A DNA stretch of 64,000 bases from Lachnospiraceae bacterium (lineage in GTDB: Bacteria; Bacillota; Clostridia; Lachnospirales; Lachnospiraceae). The stretch covers positions 15,520-79,519 of the forward strand of contig JBGVKG010000017.1 in NCBI GenBank assembly GCA_045123575.1, given 5' to 3'. The notes beneath the pieces were generated by a model. The model was given only the letters and a program-made list of their open reading frames with translations, searched no databases and was not told the DNA's origin. The translations under genes and the position numbers were made by a program. How positions within the stretch are numbered: the stretch's first letter is position 1; every line of letters begins with the position of its first letter. Shown piece by piece: positions 8,579-52,205 of the stretch.

Positions 8579-8850
8579 AAAAAAATCGTCCCTTTAGAAA
8601 CTAAAGGGACGAATATATTTACATTTAATCTATCCGCGATACCACCCAGATTCCCACATCATATCATAAATGTGGACTCTCATTATCTGCGTAACGTGCA
8701 GCATCCGTTCTAGACTACTAATCTTCACCTAGACAGCTCCTGTGGGAAATTCAGTACATAACCAGCGCTTAAGGAAACTTACAGCCGATGATTTCCTCTC
8801 TCTTAAAGAATAGCTATAACCTACTATACACAATCATTGCCTTTGTATTT
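8579..8850 (-). promoter_or_regulatory. T-box leader (Phe) controlling pheST
   Basis: Minus strand carries the T-box sequence tctGGGTGGTATCGCGgat (plus 8636-8650). It is followed by terminator hairpin cgtcccttt..aaagggacg (8587-8612) and a U-run. Stem I has an AGAGAG region, and the candidate specifier loop gaaUUUCcc contains the Phe codons UUU/UUC. Confidence 0.8.
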
Positions 8851-13987: not shown

Positions 13988-14176
13988 TATATGTATCCCA
14001 AAATGCCGGTTCCTGCGCTTTGAGTCCTAGCATAGCTAGGTGGGCAACCGCATCTGATACTCAGCCTTCCACTAATATATAACGAGGCTTGACATCATAT
14101 CTGAAATATAGGAATCCCTTTAAATAAATGTAGGTTCAAATAAAACAGGAGTATCGAGCATCCCAGGAAACATATA
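13988..14176 (-). ncRNA. Candidate 6S-like structured RNA (about 189 nt)
   Basis: Gene-free 330-nt gap. The minus-sense ends form a 19-position closing helix, 5' uauauguuuccugggaugc with 3' gcauuuugggauacauaua. It has 4 G-U pairs that would be C-A mismatches on the plus strand. The helix continues (ucg/cgg, uccug/cagga) into a large internal loop, an apical hairpin (aagccuc/gaaggcu) and a small 3'-side hairpin (ccuagc/cuagg). Confidence 0.45.
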
Positions 14177-33591: not shown

Positions 33592-33632
33592 GATAATATC
33601 CTTTCCGACCTCTTTACACTTTCTTCTGATTT

Positions 33633-33746
33633 ACACTTTTCAGCAAAATCGCTTCGCGCTTTTGGTCACACCTTTCTGACCTTTTCACACTTTTCAACAA
33701 AATCGCTTCGTGCTTTTGGTCACACCTTTCTGACCCTTTCACACTT
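33633..33746. repeat. 54-nt tandem direct repeat (2.1 copies) in the thrC upstream region
   Basis: 33633-33686 and 33687-33740 are identical at 51/54 positions (acacttttcaRcaaaatcgcttcgYgcttttggtcacacctttctgaccYtttc). A third copy starts at 33741. Confidence 0.9.
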
Positions 33747-33825
33747 CATAACTATAACACACCTTTTCACTTCTGACAAGCCCTTTTGTATCACTAAATT
33801 AAATCTTTAACGCAATAAAGAAAAT

Positions 33826-34338
33826 ATAATTCATATTATCAGAAGCTTGGTAAAATATTTGCTAAGCTTCTTTTTATATTGCGTTGGAATATTCCTTCTA
33901 ACCATCAGCTATTTACAGATATTTTTCTGTGCTGTTTTCGAGAACGCATATTTTTCTAAATGCCGTTTTTCAAAGAGCCTATATTTTTGTCTTTTATATG
34001 TCAGACAGCTATGCCAGATGATGATTTGTGTGGATAAACACAGCATTGCAGATTTTCGTTAAGTTTTTATAGTTCGCCCGAGCAAGCACACCGCATAGCT
34101 CGAAGCTGTTTGACGAAGCTCGCCCCATATAATAGGGCGAGCGAGAAGTTCTGCAGAGCTATGCGGCTTGTACTATAAAAGCTTGTGAGGGCGAACGTAT
34201 AAAAATAGAAAATCGAAACAGCTGTGTTTACCACACAAACATCACTGGCTAGATGTCCGCCTTGATAAAAGACAAAAGCTTTTTTGAAAAAAAAGAAGCT
34301 TGAATCAAATACTTCAAGCTTCTTATAATATGAATTAT
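33826..34338. repeat. Long imperfect palindrome, copy 1 (about 513 nt), MITE-like or structured-RNA element
   Basis: Terminal inverted repeats ataattcatattatMagaagcttg at 33826 and, reverse-complemented, at 34338. Nested stems run down to the apical hairpin gctcgccc(34118-34125)/gggcgagc(34135-34142). It shares 24-28-nt near-identical blocks with the element at 49491-50104, in inverted orientation. Confidence 0.8.
34284..34323 (-). terminator. Intrinsic terminator of the SleB-like gene (forms the right terminal hairpin of the palindrome)
   Basis: Stem agaagcttgaa/ttcaagcttct (34294-34323), followed on the minus strand by U8 (plus-strand A-run 34286-34294). Confidence 0.6.
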
Positions 34339-34339
34339 G

Positions 34340-35026
34340 TTATTTGTAAAAGTAGTGGTCCTGGTGCTTGAATAAGAATTCAAGCGCTGTGTTAAACCAG
34401 CTATTAGGTGATGTCTTCATACAGAAGTATATTGCACCCTCTGAGTAATCTTCACCGCGAAGTGCTCTGTTTACACAGTCTATAGTTTCTTCACTAGCTG
34501 TTACTCTCCAGTATCTTCCACCTGGTCTAGTTGGTGAGAACTGGTATGTTTTACCATTGTTTGCAAATACCACATCAGTGATATTGTTAGGGAACTTCCT
34601 TGGATGCTTAACTCTGTTAATAATAACATTAGCAACTAAAATCTTTCCCTTTTCGTCTTGATCACCGGCCTCTGCCTCAACAATAGTACATAATACCTTA
34701 TAATCTTCTTCTGTAAATTCCACAACATACTCTGGCTCTGCCACTATATGTTCTTCATTTTCCTGTTTTGTTGCTGTAGATGGTTCTTCATCTAAAGTTT
34801 CTTCGATCTGAACTTCGTTCTTTGTTACATTCTGTTCAGCGTAGTAAGTCCCGGGCGCACTATCATCTTCACTGTTTGTTTCTTCGATTGTACTCTCTGT
34901 TTCATTAACTGTTACGTTTGTAGTATTGTCTAGAGATGCTGCTACTGCTACGAGCACTAAGGCACTAGTTGTCATTGCAATGGCACCGCTAGGTATTTTG
35001 CTAAATACTGTCTTAATACTGTCCAT
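34340..35026 (-). CDS. Cell-wall hydrolase, SleB/Hydrolase_2 family, membrane-anchored
   Basis: 228 aa with an N-terminal signal anchor, an acidic linker, and a C-terminal LCTIVEAEAGDQDEKGKILVANVIINRV...YQFSP...ALRGEDYSEGAIYF typical of SleB-like domains. Confidence 0.7.
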   Translation of the reverse strand: MDSIKTVFSKIPSGAIAMTTSALVLVAVAASLDNTTNVTVNETESTIEETNSEDDSAPGTYYAEQNVTKNEVQIEETLDEEPSTATKQENEEHIVAEPEYVVEFTEEDYKVLCTIVEAEAGDQDEKGKILVANVIINRVKHPRKFPNNITDVVFANNGKTYQFSPTRPGGRYWRVTASEETIDCVNRALRGEDYSEGAIYFCMKTSPNSWFNTALEFLFKHQDHYFYK

Positions 35027-35324
35027 GATTTATCTCCTTTCAGTCCCGTTGGACCTAAGACGCATTATATTGTACCTGCCAACGACTGTCAACACTACCT
35101 CTTGAATTTTGGGAGTAATTGCCATCCATATTTTACCACAAAAAAGTAGCCACCCTACAAACATGCACAATAACCCCTTTATCACCAATCTAATTTTGTG
35201 CACTTTTACCATAACCGCTTTTTTCTGATAAAGTAGTAGTTATTAACTTTTTTCTTCTAATTTTTATAATTTCGTGTTAAAATGGGTTGTGAGACATATT
35301 TTTTTACTAAAATCGGAGGTCAAA

Positions 35325-36125
35325 ATGTACCCTGGAGTATTTAAAGCTACAAAAAAAGACGGTACTATTTACTATCGTTCTTCATTTACGCACAAAAGCA
35401 AACATATAAGTCTAGGTAGCTATTCTACGGAAAAGGATGCTCACAAGGCTTATGTAGAGGCCTCCAATATTATAACTTCCACCAAGTCTATAAAGATAAC
35501 TGATTATAATAAGAAGAAAAGGGTATTATCTTTCGAGAAATGGGTTGTGCTTATCAATTTCAAGGACAACGGCATGTACTTTAAGAATCCCATCTATCTG
35601 CGCCCCAAATACTTTGAGTATTATCTGGACAACGACCCTTATGCTCCACTTAAGTTTGATGTAGAGGACTTATTCTTCTACTCTACTCATAAGATAATGA
35701 GACGTGGAGGGCATCTTTTCGTAGCCGATTACGGTATGCAGCTAAATATTCAAAACCGTTACGGCATTAAGAACTTTGCAGTACCTGGCAAGGATTACAT
35801 ATTCATAAATGGCGATAATACTGACTATCGTTCACAGAATATAAAGATAATAAATAAGTACAATGGTGTTACTCTCATAGACGATGAGGGCACTCAACCT
35901 TTATATATTGCCAAGATACATATAAATGGTGATTATATTATAGGAAGATACTCAGATGAAATAGACGCTGCCATAGCATATAATAAAGCAGTAGACACAC
36001 TTACATCTAATGGCTTTAATATAGCTTATCAGCATAATTATATAGAAGAATTAAATAGTATCGGCTATACATCCAGATACAACAAAACAAAGATATCAAA
36101 AAAGCTAAGGGATTTACGCCCTTAG
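35325..36125 (+). CDS. Double AP2-domain DNA-binding protein with a degenerate HNH-like core
   Basis: Start set at MYPGVFK (GGAGG 8 nt upstream). AP2-like units YPGVFKATKKDGTIYYRSSF..GSYSTEKDAHKAYVEA and YNGVTLIDDEGTQPLYIAKIHINGDYIIGRYSDEIDAAIAYNKA. The central DYIFINGDNTDYRSQNI resembles an HNH_3 motif but lacks the histidine. Confidence 0.5.
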   Translation: MYPGVFKATKKDGTIYYRSSFTHKSKHISLGSYSTEKDAHKAYVEASNIITSTKSIKITDYNKKKRVLSFEKWVVLINFKDNGMYFKNPIYLRPKYFEYYLDNDPYAPLKFDVEDLFFYSTHKIMRRGGHLFVADYGMQLNIQNRYGIKNFAVPGKDYIFINGDNTDYRSQNIKIINKYNGVTLIDDEGTQPLYIAKIHINGDYIIGRYSDEIDAAIAYNKAVDTLTSNGFNIAYQHNYIEELNSIGYTSRYNKTKISKKLRDLRP

Positions 36126-40359: not shown

Positions 40360-40590
40360 AAGCAACAGCACAAGAAAAACTATGTGTACACGATTTTAAG
40401 CTTGCTTAAAAAATCGTGGATATATAGTTTTTCTTGTATTGGGCGCAGCCCGTGAATGAAATAGCTTACGAAGTAAGCTATGAATTCTGGCTGTTGCTTA
40501 TATATCTATATTTACATTTTTTCTTGCATCAAGCGCAGCCCGTGAATGAAATAGCTTACGAAGTAAGCTATGAATTCTGGCTGTTGCTTA
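40360..40590. repeat. Composite hairpin repeat containing an exact 58-nt direct duplication
   Basis: 40443-40500 equals 40533-40590 exactly (gcgcagcccgtgaatgaaatagcttacgaagtaagctatgaattctggctgttgctta), and each copy is itself a hairpin. An inverted partial copy aagcaacagcacaagaaaaa lies at 40360-40379, with an intervening hairpin cacgatttt..aaaatcgtg. Confidence 0.9.
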
Positions 40591-41266
40591 ACGCACACAA
40601 GTCCTTCACAACCTCACTAGCCATCAAAAGTCCAGCAACTGAAGGCGAAAAAGCTATACTTCCTGGCACTTCCCCCTTATATACAGGCACTTCCTTGGAA
40701 TATACCACCTTTAGCTTCTTTACACCTCTTGTCTTCAGTTCCTTTCGCATAACCTTTGCCAGCGGACACATCTCTGTCTTATATATATCTGCTATCTCAA
40801 ACTTATCTGGGCACACCTTATTGCCTGCGCCCATAGCTGATATAACTGGCACACCTGCCTCCTTAGCCTGCATTATTATCTGTATCTTAGCTGTAACAGT
40901 ATCTACAGCATCTACTACATAATCATACTGAGCGAAATCAAACTCATGAGCATTGTCAGGAAGAAAGAAGCATTTTCTAGCGTCTACTTGTATATCAGGG
41001 TTAATATCAAGCATACGCTCCTTAAGTACATCTACCTTATCTCTACCAATAGTTGAATGTAGAGCTATTATCTGTCTGTTTATATTTGACTCTGACACAG
41101 TATCCTTGTCCACTATGGTTATGTGTCCTACTCCGCTTCTTGCTAGCGCTTCCGCAACATATCCACCTACACCACCAACACCAAAGATAAGCACTTTCGA
41201 ATTATTTAATTTAACTATAGCGTCTTCACCTAAAAGTAATGCTGTTCGTGAAAATTGTTCCTTCAT
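40568..41266 (-). CDS. tcdA: tRNA threonylcarbamoyladenosine dehydratase (ThiF/E1-like, TcdA/CsdL)
   Basis: 232 aa with Rossmann motif VLIFGVGGVGGYVAEALARSGVG, then DKDTVSESNINRQ and a TcdA-like C-terminal half. The last 7 codons and the stop lie inside the 58-nt repeat. Confidence 0.75.
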   Translation of the reverse strand: MKEQFSRTALLLGEDAIVKLNNSKVLIFGVGGVGGYVAEALARSGVGHITIVDKDTVSESNINRQIIALHSTIGRDKVDVLKERMLDINPDIQVDARKCFFLPDNAHEFDFAQYDYVVDAVDTVTAKIQIIMQAKEAGVPVISAMGAGNKVCPDKFEIADIYKTEMCPLAKVMRKELKTRGVKKLKVVYSKEVPVYKGEVPGSIAFSPSVAGLLMASEVVKDLCALSNSQNS

Positions 41267-42619: not shown

Positions 42620-42940
42620 AAAAGAAGCTCGTCCTTTATAAATAAAGGACGAGCATTATACCCGTGTTACCACCTTAATTCATAGAGCATTCACACACTC
42701 TACCTTAGTAGGTACTGACCTGTTATACCAAAATGGAATTCACTTCACGATTTTGATTACGATCAAGACCCTAGCACTCTAACGGTTGCCCTCCGTCGCA
42801 GCCTACTGGATTGCTCTTTCGGTACGAAGCTCATGGATGTATTCGTAAACTTAAGTATCTCCTGCGCCTCTCATCAACCGGCTACTTTCTGTAGGTCTTC
42901 CCTAGAACTACTTGTTCCAATCATTGCTTTTTCAATATAT
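42620..42940 (-). promoter_or_regulatory. T-box leader (Tyr) controlling tyrS
   Basis: Minus strand has specifier context cGAA-UAC-Auc (Tyr codon UAC) and T-box sequence ttAAGGTGGTAACACGGGta (plus 42661-42676). Terminator gctcgtcc..ggacgagc (42627-42654) and a U-run follow. Confidence 0.85.
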
Positions 42941-47809: not shown

Positions 47810-49327
47810 TTAATTAACAGCATCTGTATTCATGCTCTCATCTGGCAACTTCTTCTCAGCCTGTCCCTTAAACTTAGCAAGTTCCTTAGCTGCCTGTGGT
47901 ATAGCAATATTTGTTCCAGCACCTGCTATACAGCCACCTGGACAAGCCATTCCCTCAATAAGACATCCATTAAGTCTGCCTGCCTTAGCCTGAAGTAACA
48001 CCTTCTTACACTCAGTAAGACCCTCTGCGTGCTCAATATGCACTGGCACTCCTGGATGATTTTCCTCTACATAAGATTTGATAGCGTCTGCAACACCACC
48101 TGCCACACCATAGCCTCTACCAGCCGCTGTAGCATCCTTCATCTCATCCATAGCTTTTATCTCATCAAGAAGAATACCCTTCGCCTCAAACATACCTGTA
48201 AGCTCTTCAAATGTTATAACGAAATCAACATCCGAACGAACTGTTCTACGGCTAGCCTCAAGCTTCTTAGAAGCACATGGGCCTATAAATACAACCGATG
48301 CATCTGGATGCTCCTTCTTTATAATACGTGCTGTTGCCACCATAGGTGTCAGCTCGTTACTTATCTTATCTATAGTCTCTGGGAAGAGATTCTTCGCCAT
48401 AACAGACCACGATGGACAACAAGATGTAAGTGCAAAAGATTGCTTTCCACTAGCTACCTCGTGTACATAATGCTCTGCCTCTGCCATACAGCCTAAGTCT
48501 GCTCCTATAGCTGTCTCATATACGTCTGCAAAACCAAGCTCCTTTAGTGCTGTCTTAAACATATCAGGTGTTACCTTAAGACCAAACTGACCTACAAAAG
48601 CTGGTGCCACCTGTGCAATAATCTTTCTTCCTGACTGCATCGCTCTAATAAGCTGGAACACCTGAGACTTATCTGCAATAGCACCAAACGGACAGCTAAC
48701 CATACACTGACCACATGATACACACATATCATTGTCTATTACAGCACGTCCAACTCTATCATTCTTTATGGCATTTACACCACAAGCAGCCTTACATGGG
48801 CGCTCCTTGTGACATATAGCATCATATGGACATACAGATTTACATTTTCCACACTTTATACACTTTTCTTTATCTATAACTGACTTTCCCTTGACCATAG
48901 ATATGGCTCCTACCGGACACACACTATGACATGGATGCGCTAAACATCCCATACAAGAGTCTGTTATCTCATATTCATTTTCCGGACACGCATTACATGC
49001 TGATGGAATAACCTGCATAAGAGGTGGCTCATAATATTTTTCATCAATATCGCTTTCCTCAAGGCCCTGTGTCAAATGTCCTGGACGCTCTCTATCCTCT
49101 GGTCTTAAGCTCATACCCATAGCCAGTCGAATACGCTCTCTTGTAATAGAACGCTCTCTATAAACGCTTTCCCAATATATAGACTCATCATAATCAACTA
49201 TCTTATATGGTAAAGCCTCCATATCATCCTTTAAATTAGTCGAATTGTACGCAAGGTTAGCAACCTCCTTGAATACTCTTCTTCTTCGCTGTCTTACAGG
49301 TGTGTCGATACCTCTCATTCCACTCAT
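47810..49327 (-). CDS. [FeFe]-hydrogenase-family protein (ferredoxin-like clusters plus H-cluster domain)
   Basis: 505 aa with several CxxCxxCxxxCP motifs and H-cluster signatures TSCCPSW, GPCASKKLE and EGMACPGGCIAGAG. Confidence 0.7.
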   Translation of the reverse strand: MSGMRGIDTPVRQRRRRVFKEVANLAYNSTNLKDDMEALPYKIVDYDESIYWESVYRERSITRERIRLAMGMSLRPEDRERPGHLTQGLEESDIDEKYYEPPLMQVIPSACNACPENEYEITDSCMGCLAHPCHSVCPVGAISMVKGKSVIDKEKCIKCGKCKSVCPYDAICHKERPCKAACGVNAIKNDRVGRAVIDNDMCVSCGQCMVSCPFGAIADKSQVFQLIRAMQSGRKIIAQVAPAFVGQFGLKVTPDMFKTALKELGFADVYETAIGADLGCMAEAEHYVHEVASGKQSFALTSCCPSWSVMAKNLFPETIDKISNELTPMVATARIIKKEHPDASVVFIGPCASKKLEASRRTVRSDVDFVITFEELTGMFEAKGILLDEIKAMDEMKDATAAGRGYGVAGGVADAIKSYVEENHPGVPVHIEHAEGLTECKKVLLQAKAGRLNGCLIEGMACPGGCIAGAGTNIAIPQAAKELAKFKGQAEKKLPDESMNTDAVN

Positions 49328-49490
49328 AAGAATTCCTCATCTTTCTCTTTATAGTCACTATATTTTACAATTGCGTAAAACATATTTAAACGCATAAATA
49401 TACACTTTATATTAAACCCCAAAACACAAACAAAATCAAGCTATATATTTTTTCTTATGCAAATAATTATCATTATGCGAATTAGCTAAA

Positions 49491-50104
49491 TTACATATAA
49501 TGAATTTTTATTCTCAAATCTGTCTATACTCCTGAACAACACGACTGTCTGTACATATTTTTCAATGCATTGAGAGGTTGCATAATTTCCCTTACGCGCT
49601 CTACTTGAAACAAAGCGCCCGACAAATCGCAGTTGCATAGCAACTACGATTAATTGTGCAATATCGAGGCAGACAACCAGCCAAGATGTTTGTATGGTGA
49701 GTACAGCTGTTTCGATTTTCTATTTTCATTCGCCCCACCTCACAAAATGCCTATTACAAGTAGCCTGCCTGCACAACTCAGTCGCTTGCCCTATAAAGGG
49801 GCAAGCTCCATCAAACAGGTTCGGCAGGCTGCTTTATTTGTGAGGTGGGGCGATGAAAACTTCACGAAAATCTGCAATGCTGTACTCATCCATGCAAATC
49901 ATCCTTGGCTAGGTTGTTCTGACCTATAGTGCATCACGGGCTAATAAGCTTGTTTCAAGAGAGCACTTAGGGGAATTTGCGTTCTCGGAAAAAGCACTGA
50001 ATAATATGTATAGATAACCTGTTGTTAGGAGTGGTAATGAGTAATTTGTCATAAAAATCGAGTATAACTAGTTATGAGTTTCGGATAATGAGAATTATGT
50101 GTAA
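49491..50104. repeat. Long imperfect palindrome, copy 2 (about 614 nt), same family as 33826-34338
   Basis: Arms are symmetric around the apical hairpin gcttgccc(49784-49791)/gggcaagc(49799-49806). Paired blocks include agcctgcc/ggcaggct, ttcgccccacctcacaaa/tttgtgaggtggggcga, gagtacagc/gctgtactc, cccttacgcgctctacttgaaacaaagc/gcttgtttcaagagagcacttagggg, and termini ttacatataat/attatgtgtaa. Confidence 0.8.
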
Positions 50105-50176
50105 AATAAAAAGCATTGAAAAGATAAAGCAGTTGTATTATAATGGGGGGGTATCAGTTGTGCTCACAGGAGGAAA

Positions 50177-50746
50177 ATGATGAAGAAGTTATTATTAATG
50201 CTTGCGTTAGTGATTAGTATGGTTGCAGCGACTGCATGCGGTGCTAAAACAGATGATGCAGGAGAAAGTTTCAATAATATGAATTCTGAAAAGGAATCAA
50301 AAGAGGATAAAAAGGAGCCTATACGTTGGGAGTTTAAATGGTCTGTACCAGAAGGATTTTTGTCTGAGGATGGAGAACTTTATGTAACAGATGATTATCC
50401 AACCGACACATCAAATATTACTTATACACATAGTGAAAATGATAGCATGGGTATTAATTTTACATCTAAGAAGTTCGAAGAATTAATGGAGGATACATTC
50501 TCAAAGCTTGGAATGGAAATAGATGTTGTAGTTGATAAGTTTGAAGAAATTGAAAAGAGCGGATGCAAAGGTCTTTCAATAGAAAGCCATTATTCAATGG
50601 GTGAAGTAGAGCTTATTCAGATACAATATGTATTCCAGTTGGGCGAAGAGATACATACTGTATGTTATACTGCAGTTGGTGATACATGGCTTGATAAGTT
50701 TGTCGAGAGCGCTAAGAGTATAACAATTACACCTATATACGAATAA
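50177..50746 (+). CDS. Lipoprotein, function unknown
   Basis: 189 aa with signal peptide and lipobox VAATAC|G, and a strong RBS AGGAGG. Confidence 0.6.
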   Translation: MMKKLLLMLALVISMVAATACGAKTDDAGESFNNMNSEKESKEDKKEPIRWEFKWSVPEGFLSEDGELYVTDDYPTDTSNITYTHSENDSMGINFTSKKFEELMEDTFSKLGMEIDVVVDKFEEIEKSGCKGLSIESHYSMGEVELIQIQYVFQLGEEIHTVCYTAVGDTWLDKFVESAKSITITPIYE

Positions 50747-50756
50747 GATTTATAAA

Positions 50757-50783
50757 AAGGGCAATGAATTCATTGCCCTTTTG
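50757..50783 (+). terminator. Intrinsic terminator
   Basis: Stem aagggcaatga/tcattgccctt followed by TTTT(G). Confidence 0.7.
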
Positions 50784-50804
50784 AAGTAAGAAAAGGGTAC
50801 AGAT

Positions 50805-52205
50805 ATGAAGTTAAGTAAGATTGTAAGAATTGTTAATATGGGTGTAGCCTTTCTTGTGCTTGCATTTTTTATGAGTGCATGTGTGTCTAAAGGCAAGGTT
50901 GACAAGGACAGAGCGACTTCAGATACAAGAGATAAGGTGGAGGTCGAAAGTTCTAGAGAACAGTTCATCGAGGATGAAACTACTACCAAGGTATTGGAGG
51001 AAGGGCCTACAGCGTCAGTATTGCCTAATGATGCTACTACGCAACCACCAACATCGACAAAAGAAAATACAAAACCTACTCAGACAACAAATAAAACTAA
51101 TACAACAGAAAAACAGACAACGACAGTAATACATACAGAAGATAAGACAACTATAGAGGAAACGACTACAGAAGAGGAGACAACTACGCAAACTCCACCT
51201 ACCGTAGAGTCATTTTATATGACAAAGACTGAATTTGACATTACAGATATGTCATATATGAGTCTTGGATTTTATATTAAGAATAATCCTGGAAATATAG
51301 AATGGGTGTCTAAGGACTCAACAGTGGCACAGATAATTGATGATGAACTTATAGGAATTAACACTGGAACTACGACTATAACAGGAACAGTTGGTGAAAA
51401 TTCTGTTACTATATCAGTGAATGTAGAGCCGTTATATGAATATGAGGAAGAAAGACCACAGTACATATTTATGTCGTCTGAACGTATCTATTTGTTTATG
51501 GAAAGTGTAGATGTGGAATCTGAATACAAAGAATCTTTAATGACAGATTTGGAAAAGATTTTAGATGAGATAGAAAAAGTAACAGGATATTCTTACACTA
51601 AGATAAGTGATAATGTGGAGCATGATGATACAAGAACTAAGATTGTTATACAGGCCATAGGGACAGACGAAGTGTATGTGTCTACCGACGAGTTAGTTAT
51701 AGATGTAGCTTCTATGGATTTTGAACAAAATGGTATTTATAATATAGTATCGGAACTGCTAGGTATGGTGTTACTAAGAAATAGTGTGGATGTAGGTGCT
51801 GCTATAAATGAGGGATACAAAGAATACCAGCAATCCCAGGTGTGTCATATATTTGAGTATGATGTAATATATGATGCGTCAAATATTCACCAGGAACAAT
51901 TAAAAGTTATGGATGAACTAACTGTAGATAATATAGTAGATAAGCTGTTGTATCCTGAAAATAATACACTTAGCTACTATTTTGTAAGATATATAGCGGA
52001 GAATTATGGTAACGACAAAATAAAGAAATTGGCTGATGCTATAACTATAAAAGCAGTGGAATTATATGAAAGCGTTCTGGCAGGACAGGCAAGCTTGTTC
52101 ACGGAAGAAGAGATATTGCATATCATTGAGGAGAATACTTCATTAGAAATAATGGATGATTTTTATGATTACATAATAAGTATAAGAGAAATGGAGAGCT
52201 TATAA
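50805..52205 (+). CDS. Secreted or lipid-anchored protein with a Thr/Glu-rich linker and a Big_2-like Ig domain
   Basis: 466 aa with signal peptide/lipobox FFMSAC|V, a TTxxT-rich low-complexity linker, and a VAQIIDDELIGINTGTTTITGTVGENSVTISVNVEP segment (Big_2-like). The C-terminal roughly 250 aa are uncharacterised. Confidence 0.55.
   Translation: MKLSKIVRIVNMGVAFLVLAFFMSACVSKGKVDKDRATSDTRDKVEVESSREQFIEDETTTKVLEEGPTASVLPNDATTQPPTSTKENTKPTQTTNKTNTTEKQTTTVIHTEDKTTIEETTTEEETTTQTPPTVESFYMTKTEFDITDMSYMSLGFYIKNNPGNIEWVSKDSTVAQIIDDELIGINTGTTTITGTVGENSVTISVNVEPLYEYEEERPQYIFMSSERIYLFMESVDVESEYKESLMTDLEKILDEIEKVTGYSYTKISDNVEHDDTRTKIVIQAIGTDEVYVSTDELVIDVASMDFEQNGIYNIVSELLGMVLLRNSVDVGAAINEGYKEYQQSQVCHIFEYDVIYDASNIHQEQLKVMDELTVDNIVDKLLYPENNTLSYYFVRYIAENYGNDKIKKLADAITIKAVELYESVLAGQASLFTEEEILHIIEENTSLEIMDDFYDYIISIREMESL

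Follow-up and report, generated by a model that had tools for sequence, protein, structure and literature searches.

Non-coding palindromic modules with inverted dif-like ends form a multi-copy family in rumen Lachnospiraceae

The 64,000-nt stretch of a Lachnospiraceae genome analysed here (assembly GCA_045123575.1, contig JBGVKG010000017.1, positions 15,520 to 79,519 of the forward strand; hereafter the window) contains, between a hydrogenase-family gene and a lipoprotein gene, a long imperfect palindrome (copy 2) that is related to a diverged palindrome on the opposite strand (copy 1). The question raised by this locus is how the arms of such an element remain complementary while their sequence changes, and what kind of element it is. 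Both copies are members of a family of palindromic modules (0.5-0.64 kb, non-coding) that occurs in many copies in rumen Lachnospiraceae. The interpretation that we favour, with moderate confidence, is that each module is bounded by inverted Xer/dif-type sites and is most likely flipped by a Xer-kind tyrosine recombinase, its arms being kept complementary at the DNA level. It is probably a recombinase-driven DNA module of a new kind, not an RNA gene.

Contigs encoding the flanking proteins were retrieved, giving the same loci from about 40 contigs of other assemblies (these and the other contigs retrieved are numbered with an L below). Their flanks are 97-100% identical to the window, the element being replaced or abruptly diverged at fixed points, and the limits of the modules were set at the points where the sequences of other strains cease to match the window. 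The element placed by the first-pass annotation at 49491-50104 (614 nt) is indeed a palindrome, with slightly wider true limits (636 nt; Table 1), and the apical stem bears out the symmetry centre proposed for it. In the family orientation, copy 2 is the reverse complement of copy 1, and local alignment joins 33895-34268 of copy 1 with the reverse complement of 49662-50032 of copy 2. The palindrome is far outside chance expectation: its 271-nt core folds with -139.6 kcal/mol on the plus strand and -133.0 on the minus strand, compared to shuffle means of -69 and -73 (z = -15.7 and -11.4).

From the outside inward, a module consists of a terminal inverted repeat of 19-24 bp, an outer arm of ~120-140 nt, the motif CTTGAAACAAG, the A and B blocks (each conserved, but differing from one another), two to three variable stems with conserved internal loops, and an apical stem-loop. 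Both blocks had been reported as nearly identical between the two copies, and on re-reading the B block matches the reverse complement of 34202-34225 at 24/24 positions and the A block (the reverse complement of 49856-49883) matches 34040-34067 at 27/28; the same asymmetric blocks are kept in all lineages. Pairing of the A block with the B block leaves 6x6 and 6x3 internal loops. Two further observations survived reading of the window, namely the C-G to T-A double change between the apical stems of the two copies, and a next stem in which the sequences are unrelated between copies yet paired in both.

The palindrome had been described as a pair of copies. A profile search of the window does find these two and no further ones, but metagenome depth and the members recovered elsewhere make it a dispersed multi-copy family. 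In contigs of DNA metagenomes the flanks have 3-12x depth versus 66-212x for the core (49560-49973), the A and B blocks being deepest and the variable centre lower, and the B block lies within the highest-depth bin of copy 2 in three of four DNA runs; copy 1 has a similar excess of core depth over flanks. This suggests that a genome equivalent holds ~10-25 copies of the core (identity of 95% or more), an estimate that may be inflated by related species in the same samples, which could contribute depth. Members were found upstream of the same hydrogenase-family gene (L021-L023, and L070/L071 in another species), adjoining a CmpB-like gene (L031/L032), and on two short contigs (L041, L042) that were reached by searching a spurious 91-aa open reading frame (ORF) of the core against a protein collection (two matches). 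They represent five independent lineages from related Lachnospiraceae, in several species, and their setting is chromosomal and intergenic. Named cluster members place the host organism in the Lachnospiraceae, and the samples in which it occurs are rumen or gut metagenomes, plus a few labelled terrestrial. The element is absent upstream of the orthologous hydrogenase-family gene in two related species (L065, L067). In a related species (L065, 3500-3960; L066, 1-260), about seven tandem copies of a ~60-65-nt repeat precede this orthologous gene.

No ORF is conserved, reading frames differing between the family copies; an ORF start common to copies 1 and 2 (MVxTAVSIFYF) was considered as coding and rejected as a by-product of the B block, with an indel in L021 and an early stop in L042. 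A scan for GAAAATCGAAACAGCTGT in a genome collection without the host species or its repeat-bearing contigs gave 20 matches, all in unrelated phyla and approximately the number expected by chance. Scans of metagenome contigs gave no match to CGAGAACGCAWATTYNYCTAARYGC and chance matches to AAAATAGAAAATCGAAACAG, and neither a viral scan nor blastn against plasmid and phage collections gave a match.

The proposal that pairing is kept despite changed sequence, in contrast to a decaying inverted duplication, holds with more copies aligned (seven sequences). RNAalifold identified 89 pairs, with standard pairs in 96.5% of cells and two-sided changes at 39 of them; none of 500 shuffles reached the observed pairing values, and sliding the partners by 1-3 columns reduced pairing to 37-49%. 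With one sequence per independent lineage (n = 5), 38 of 85 pairs are doubly changed, and the central stem has up to four pair types in five sequences. The stems of the central hairpin are almost wholly different between lineages with complementarity kept, and stems diverge far more between lineages than do the bulges between them. The outer arms covary too, as judged by eye, and arm complementarity is 75-85% except in the 25 nt beside the apex, reaching the ends in four full-length copies; no clear gradient from apex to end, such as would indicate hairpin-templated correction, was found in it. A neutral relic, i.e. an old inverted duplication that was copied once in the region and is decaying, would fit the finding of only two copies within the window, but is excluded by the high core depth in metagenomes, the presence of the family in at least five lineages of several species, the two-sided changes at 38-39 pairs, and the conservation of the same asymmetric blocks in all lineages.

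Covariation is common to RNA structures and DNA hairpins, and therefore does not discriminate between them. A long structured hairpin RNA gene or cis-element (a processed double-stranded RNA or a transcription insulator), with pairing selected in RNA, would explain the strong covariation, the very stable folds and the conserved internal loops, and metatranscriptome contigs do touch parts of the element at depth 2-6. The two strands fold equally well, however (consensus energies of -105.7 versus -108.4 kcal/mol, individual copies favouring either strand), and arm-versus-arm alignment of six elements gave 36 G.T versus 55 A.C mismatches, so that G.U is not in excess over A.C and neither strand is protected. 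One-sided changes are few: 83 cells are changed on both sides versus ~14 with one-sided changes of the wobble type, and many of the double changes are transversion swaps, e.g. G-C to C-G. Because there is no strand bias and G-U intermediates are few, maintenance of complementarity looks to act on DNA rather than RNA. The sole good -35/-10 pair (TTGCAG-16-TATAGT) lies in the A block of the copy 1 type and is not conserved in copy 2, L021 or L042, no terminator-like site was found in copy 2, and Rfam gave no match at the gathering score and only chance-level ones at E up to 10. In addition, the RNA depth is not above that of the single-copy 6S RNA gene of the same organism (2-3.5, the data being too thin for a decision) despite ~10-25 copies of the element, and the in-place inversion described below would reverse the transcribed strand. 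An RNA function of this kind is improbable.

At the ends of the modules, the pattern TTC-NN-ATAA / N6 / TTAT(G) is read outward, and (R/Y)ATAA-N6-TTAT is found in dif register at every end of copies of the copy 1, copy 2, L070 and L071 types. A position weight matrix (PWM) derived from 20 non-identical predicted Firmicutes dif sites (supplement of Kono et al. 2011, PMC3025954) was scanned over both strands of the window (127,946 positions), and the four ends of copies 1 and 2 gave the ranks shown in Table 1. The B-end of copy 1 also has 20/28 identity to the Bacillus subtilis dif, the A-end of copy 2 is the tied best match to the Escherichia coli dif by simple identity, and TTCGCATAAT of the copy 2 B-end is identical to the same stretch of the XerC arm of the predicted Lactobacillus casei dif (PMC3025954, supplement). 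Scores above 2 were obtained for the end(s) at 8 of 11 element-bearing loci scanned, and were the top matches at six of these; examples are L070 (25.5 for AGTTCCGATAA TGAGAA TTATGTAATCT, essentially a consensus dif, and 10.1), L071 (23.6 and 10.1) and L050 (15.8 and 9.8). The element-free loci L065 and L067 have no match above 2.

The XerC-type arm faces inward at both ends of every complete copy, and the outer XerD-type arm is supplied by the flank. Relative to the reference arm TTATGTNAANT, the XerD-type arm is good in L070 (TTATGTAATCT), on the sleB side of copy 1 (TTATGTTATTT) and on the lipoprotein side of copy 2 (TTATGTGTAAA), and poor on the hydrogenase side (TTATTTGCATA) and the patatin side (TTATAGGTAGG). 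At the copy 2 B-end, the XerC-type arm and the spacer are inside the element, and the poor XerD-type arm is in the flank of the hydrogenase-family gene. The spacers of the two ends are identical in four non-hybrid full-length elements (TATGAA in copy 1, TGAGAA in L031 and L070, TGATAA in L022) and differ by one base in the hybrid copies (copy 2 of the window and L021). These end sites are not the dif of the chromosomal terminus, because GC skew is continuous across the element in L022, L031, L050 and L070. A Fur box, to which the terminal repeat has 15/19 identity by eye (E. coli consensus), was dropped in favour of the background-tested dif reading. The second-best match to the matrix in the window, AGTTTCAATAATATGAATTCTGAAAAGG at 50267-50294 on the plus strand, is inside the lipoprotein gene and has ATAATATGAATT in common with the copy 1 ends.

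At three loci, the orientation of the element is opposite between closely related strains. At copy 1, it is the B-end that adjoins the sleB flank in the window, L050, L051, L053, L056 and L058, and the A-end in L052, L054, L055 and L059; reverse-complemented, the L052 element agrees with that of L050 at 461/470 positions. The thrC flank on the other side is joined to the hairpin A end in the window, L060, L061 and L062 (by orientation) and to the hairpin B end in L063 and L064, hairpin A being the feature by which the A-end was told from the B-end. L054 and L063 are from one sample, and both junctions of the flipped copy 1 state were therefore seen together. Run X7 independently gave a joint between 33826 and 34339 on opposite strands, with 14 letters common to both sides. 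At the hydrogenase-family gene, the outer arm beside the gene in L030 and L025 is a near-identical reverse complement of the far arm of L022, up to the terminal repeat, and at the lipoprotein gene, L034 carries the opposite end of the L031 element. The flip junctions are not graph artefacts, because the junction sequences are shorter than the word sizes of the assemblers.

The interval of crossover is the terminal 14 bp (copy 1) or 19-20 bp (copy 2 type), i.e. the ATAA-N6-TTAT segment including the spacer, with no finer resolution. The outer arms move with the flip, and the crossover is therefore within the terminal 14-24 bp and not in longer identical stretches farther inward. Homologous crossover from arm to arm was accordingly rejected as the cause of the flips, the 21-nt and 26-nt stretches of identity that lie immediately inward of the L022 ends being unused. 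A further copy 1-type member is present in L060 (2200-2320) with the flank ...CGGACGCTAAATAAC, and runs X1, X2, X4 and X5 have loose ends at 33828 and 34345. Samples differ in whether the CGGACGCTAAATAAC flank adjoins the A-end or the B-end; the XerD-type arm of this flank, GTTATTT, is similar to that of the sleB side.

No target duplication was found at nine ends examined, and there is no recombinase gene in the window and no recombinase or transposase within 3-6 kb at any fetched locus. Like the dif-like terminal sites, the flips and the lack of a match in Rfam, these are results that go beyond the first-pass annotation. They bear on the possibility that the module is a conventional miniature inverted-repeat transposable element (MITE) or foldback element, a deletion derivative of an insertion sequence (IS) that is moved in trans by a transposase and whose palindrome is a by-product of long inverted repeats homogenised by conversion. 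The modules resemble MITEs in being short, non-coding, multi-copy and intergenic with terminal inverted repeats of 19-24 bp, in being missing upstream of the orthologous hydrogenase-family gene of two related species (L065, L067), and in that contigs often break within them. Transposition of this kind is nevertheless unlikely given the lack of target-site duplications and of a neighbouring transposase, although shuffling of flanks between copies could have erased some duplications. Stem divergence far above bulge divergence is not what a randomly decaying MITE would show, transposition does not normally flip an element in place with junctions exactly at its ends, the ends match the dif matrix, and we know of no IS end that resembles them. 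No autonomous partner having the same ends plus a transposase was found in the window, the fetched loci, or the plasmid and phage collections, whole genomes of the host being outside this search.

The modules are also mosaic. The L041 element has a copy 1-type centre within copy 2-type arms, that of L030 has a copy 2-type core within L022-type arms, and that of L052 has a copy 2-like patch in its A block; the mosaic junctions are concentrated at the CTTGAAACAAG motifs on either side of the high-copy core. Copy 2 of the window is itself a hybrid, of which 49463-49617 matches the hydrogenase-locus copy (L021/L022) and 49605-50098 is identical to the lipoprotein-locus copy (L031). Read depth climbs just outside the core-edge motif of 49604-49617, from about 49560, and the motif has a mirrored counterpart at 49948-49964. 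CTTGAAACAAG is locally palindromic at these two positions, and three independent mosaic junctions fall there.

The location of copy 2 between the hydrogenase-family gene and the lipoprotein gene, from which the first-pass annotation assigned it to a divergent promoter region, is true of the window but was seen only there, where it coincides with a flip of GC skew from about -0.25 to about +0.2 to +0.29 (48000-52000, switching at ~49500-50100) and a turn of gene orientation from almost all minus to mostly plus. The skew flips likewise in L021 and L060, and not in L022, L031/L032, L050, L067 or L070. In contigs of other assemblies that span the element, the lipoprotein copy adjoins a CmpB-like gene (CmpB, element, lipoprotein gene in this order in six assemblies), the hydrogenase-family copy adjoins an MscS-like or a patatin gene, and the adjacency of MscS and hydrogenase-family genes is kept in an element-free relative (L067). 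The skew flip is thus attributed to an inversion or a chimeric join, since skew is continuous across L022, L031 and L070 and the MscS-hydrogenase adjacency is ancestral: the join of hydrogenase gene, element and lipoprotein gene may have arisen by a large, recent inversion involving two copies, or in assembly, through their common core. A replication origin was rejected; the cumulative GC-skew minimum is exactly at copy 2 and copy 1 has a DnaA-type box (TGTGGATAA), but there is no dnaA context.

The occurrence of both orientations among near-identical strains at three loci would also be expected of a phase-variation switch (inverton), in which the flip re-aims an internal promoter or terminator and toggles the flanking genes. 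Five genes directed away from the element have their start codons 79-136 nt downstream of its ends, and the promoter-like site in the A block of copy 1 could be such a payload. Against this, the module is nearly symmetric, so that a flip alters little, and conservation of the promoter-like site does not extend to copy 2, L021 or L042. The lipoprotein gene has a strong promoter-like site of its own outside the element (TTGAAA-17-TATAAT, 11/12), and the hydrogenase-family gene keeps, in element-free relatives, a conserved upstream stretch that we read as its own promoter. Each sample examined has a single orientation in its assembled contigs. A regulatory switch is about as improbable as a hairpin RNA.

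We return to the Xer-bounded module, for which the following mechanism may be envisaged. Each module would be bounded by two inverted core sites, each with an 11-nt XerC-type arm inside the module, a 6-nt spacer, and an XerD-type arm starting with TTAT that extends into the flank. A Xer-kind tyrosine recombinase, either the XerC/XerD pair of the host or a paralogue, would most likely carry out strand exchange in the spacers. Acting on both ends of a single module, it would flip the module in place, whereas exchange or homologous recombination between copies would re-sort the flanks and swap the inner high-copy core. Two processes, singly or together, may keep the arms complementary: one arm may serve to correct the other (through hairpin-templated repair, template switching on a folded strand, or conversion), and selection may favour a hairpin or cruciform whose folding places the two end sites side by side. 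The asymmetric A and B blocks would persist as conserved bulges and are the likeliest features for recognition by a protein; their conservation appears to argue for a protein that recognises the folded form or the exact geometry. Both the acting enzyme and the upkeep of complementarity are what we infer from these patterns, as would be any benefit to the cell.

Several points weigh against the Xer-bounded interpretation. Xer action alone leaves the complementarity of ~300-nt arms unexplained, and a chromosome with many dif-like sites should be at risk. Several ends have a weak outer XerD-type arm, the hydrogenase-side end ranking 358 for the full 28 nt, and no recombinase is tied to the end sites. 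The likeness to dif was noticed before being tested, though the matrix is independent, and the AT-rich dyad ATAAT-N4-ATTAT could serve another protein. Orientation was read from assembled contigs, which gave a single one per sample, and no contig with a flipped end spans the whole element, the flip having been pieced together from two junctions. The decaying duplication is excluded; the MITE, the hairpin RNA and the regulatory inverton are possible at lower probability than the Xer-bounded module.

A bolder proposal, which we put forward tentatively and with clearly less confidence, sees the family as recombination modules that fold on themselves. They would be non-coding chromosomal equivalents of dif modules, whose hairpin or cruciform interior pairs the half-sites at the base of its stem and gives an FtsK-independent Xer synapse, hijacking dimer resolution. 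Extrusion in supercoiled DNA, or folding of single strands in replication or DNA uptake, would offer Xer a ready-made synapse or junction. The family would thereby spread, flip and swap its core, and serve as portable breakpoints that re-arrange Lachnospiraceae chromosomes.

The nearest known system is the dif (pdif / pXerC-D) module of Acinetobacter, a discrete segment between two oppositely oriented 28-bp XerC/XerD-type sites, which inverts or reshuffles between sites with a common 6-bp spacer and leaves no target duplication (PMC13141974, PMC9947245). In Acinetobacter plasmids, the spacers of an active inverted pXerC/D pair are identical or near-identical, and the modules carry genes (resistance, toxin-antitoxin), are located on Rep_3/OrfX plasmids, and are described as unique to Acinetobacter (PMC9947245, PMC13141974). 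The present family is similar in its inverted dif-like ends, the identical spacers of non-hybrid copies, the presence of both orientations and the lack of target duplication at the ends examined. It differs in being non-coding, palindromic over its full length, chromosomal, present in ~10-25 copies by core depth, and in Clostridia, with a role for Xer that is predicted from sequence. With no conserved ORF and a chromosomal setting in Lachnospiraceae, it is therefore only mechanistically similar to the Acinetobacter modules and not a member of them. The nearest precedent for folded DNA as a Xer substrate is the attachment region of phage CTX-phi (attP), which has two dif-like sites in inverted orientation and where the recombinases act on a folded single strand (PMC4246890); single strands of the present element would likewise fold so that the dif-like ends pair.

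Integrative mobile elements exploiting Xer (IMEX) are gene-carrying elements that insert at the dif site of the chromosome and are then bordered by hybrid sites in direct repeat, whereas the present modules are scattered intergenically where GC skew is continuous, so not at the terminus, and have no genes. Invertons such as the RecV switches of Clostridioides difficile and the Mpi-controlled promoters of Bacteroides are inverted-repeat segments flipped at several loci by a recombinase encoded elsewhere. The present module is also a short segment between inverted repeats that is found flipped at several loci, but it has an almost symmetric payload with no promoter-like site conserved across lineages, in contrast to the asymmetric promoter or terminator payload of invertons. 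REPINs, Correia elements, ERIC, RUP and bcr1 are small (~100-160 nt) palindromic intergenic repeats. REPINs are associated with a RAYT transposase, and compensatory changes by which their hairpin is preserved have been described; target duplications are generated by Correia elements and bcr1. The present family shares with them its non-coding, multi-copy, intergenic and hairpin-forming nature, and differs in its length of 500-640 nt, its dif-like ends, and the lack of target duplication at the ends examined. Single-strand promoters and origins of plasmids (Frpo, ssoA) are long imperfect hairpins with conserved bulges in variable stems and one functional strand, positioned in leading- or lagging-strand regions. 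Conserved bulges within variable stems are found here as well, but without strand preference and on the chromosome.

If the Xer-bounded interpretation is true, Xer-bounded mobile modules are not confined to Acinetobacter plasmids, and a stripped-down, non-coding, palindromic form exists on the chromosomes of abundant gut anaerobes. The family is a natural system for the survival of long palindromes in bacteria and the co-evolution of their arms, and lets one ask whether cruciform or hairpin DNA serves tyrosine recombinases outside phage CTX-phi. It interrupts short-read assemblies and may give rise to hybrid joins in metagenome-assembled genomes, perhaps also in this window, and it marks strain differences in gene order, which is relevant to strain tracking and to the pangenomes of rumen Lachnospiraceae.

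Table 1. Features of the two palindromic modules in the window (positions are those of the 64,000-nt stretch; spacers are set apart in the dif-like sites).
Feature	Position	Strand	Details
Copy 2, palindromic module, imperfect	49463-50098	.	636 nt, complete, centre 49795; A-type arm at right in family orientation
Copy 2, left (B-end) dif-like site	49456-49483	-	AATTCGCATAA TGATAA TTATTTGCATA; positions 1-22 equalled or beaten by 38 of 127,946
Copy 2, B-type outer arm	49484-49603	.	Single-copy depth; identical to hydrogenase-locus copy of other strains
Copy 2, core-edge motif	49604-49617	.	CTTGAAACAAAGCG; window sequence changes here from L022-type to L031-type
Copy 2, 33-nt mini-hairpin insertion	49624-49656	+	AAATCGCAGTTGCATAGCAACTACGATTAATTG; in B arm; in some copies, absent from others
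Copy 2, conserved B block	49703-49726	+	ACAGCTGTTTCGATTTTCTATTTT; 24/24 with copy 1; conserved in L041, L042, L071
Copy 2, variable central hairpin	49730-49853	.	17-bp and 8-bp stems, conserved internal loops, apical stem-loop 49784-49806
Copy 2, perfect 17-bp stem	49730-49746 / 49837-49853		Repeat finder
Copy 2, next stem	49762-49769 / 49823-49830		AGCCTGCC / GGCAGGCT; 8 bp; read from sequence
Copy 2, apical stem	49784-49791 / 49799-49806		GCTTGCCC / GGGCAAGC; sets centre 49795
Copy 2, conserved A block	49856-49883	-	ACAGCATTGCAGATTTTCGTGAAGTTTT; 27/28 with copy 1; conserved across lineages
Copy 2, A-type outer arm	49965-50077	.	Contains CGAGAACGCA; identical to lipoprotein-locus copy in L031
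Copy 2, right (A-end) dif-like site	50078-50105	+	GTTTCGGATAA TGAGAA TTATGTGTAAA; PWM rank 3, positions 1-22
Copy 1, family member	33826-34338	opposite to copy 2	513 nt, diverged
Copy 1, A-end dif-like site	33819-33846	-	GCTTCTGATAA TATGAA TTATATTTTCT; PWM rank 3 of 127,946, full 28 nt
Copy 1, hairpin A	33841-33871	+	Just inside A-end, then T-run on plus strand; read from sequence
Copy 1, next stem	34091-34101 / 34156-34166		CCGCATAGCTC / GAGCTATGCGG; counterpart of copy 2 8-bp stem
Copy 1, hairpin B	34294-34323	-	Just inside B-end, then T8 on minus strand; read from sequence
Copy 1, B-end dif-like site	34318-34345	+	GCTTCTTATAA TATGAA TTATGTTATTT; PWM rank 1, 15.8 bits

The 33-nt mini-hairpin of copy 2 is polymorphic: a joint that skips these 33 nt was found in all four DNA runs and some other runs, and the insertion is absent from L021-L023. 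A close relative of it forms the apex of the L070 element, and it behaves like a movable sub-module. In copy 1, the B outer arm is ~100 nt shorter than the full-length form in L052 and L064, and hairpin B is likely to be the terminator of the cell-wall hydrolase gene (34340-35026). The perfect DnaA-box-type nonamer of copy 1 is located in the A arm (34029-34037), and versions with one mismatch are at the equivalent position in L042 and L021, but not in copy 2. Between thrC and copy 1 are two tandem 54-nt repeats (33630-33737, 93% identical), the number of which varies among strains, with an extra repeat stretch in runs X5 and X7 (a joint with a 47-nt back-step) and a 71-nt deletion in X2.

Pfam has no family for a 283-aa ORF beside copy 1 (35274-36125, plus strand), the 188-aa lipoprotein (50180-50746, plus strand) or its 466-aa neighbour (50805-52205, plus strand); an AP2/HNH-type domain was suspected in the 283-aa ORF and dropped for want of a Pfam match. 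At this ORF, gene callers call a 266-aa product on the opposite strand instead. Elsewhere in the window, two 81-nt direct repeats (91% identical) are present at 40370-40590 following a 28-nt inverted repeat, in the 413-nt gap upstream of a gene at 40568-41266. Rfam gathering scores were reached by two T-box leaders (8602-8846 and 42642-42933) and the 6S RNA gene (13991-14172), all on the minus strand.

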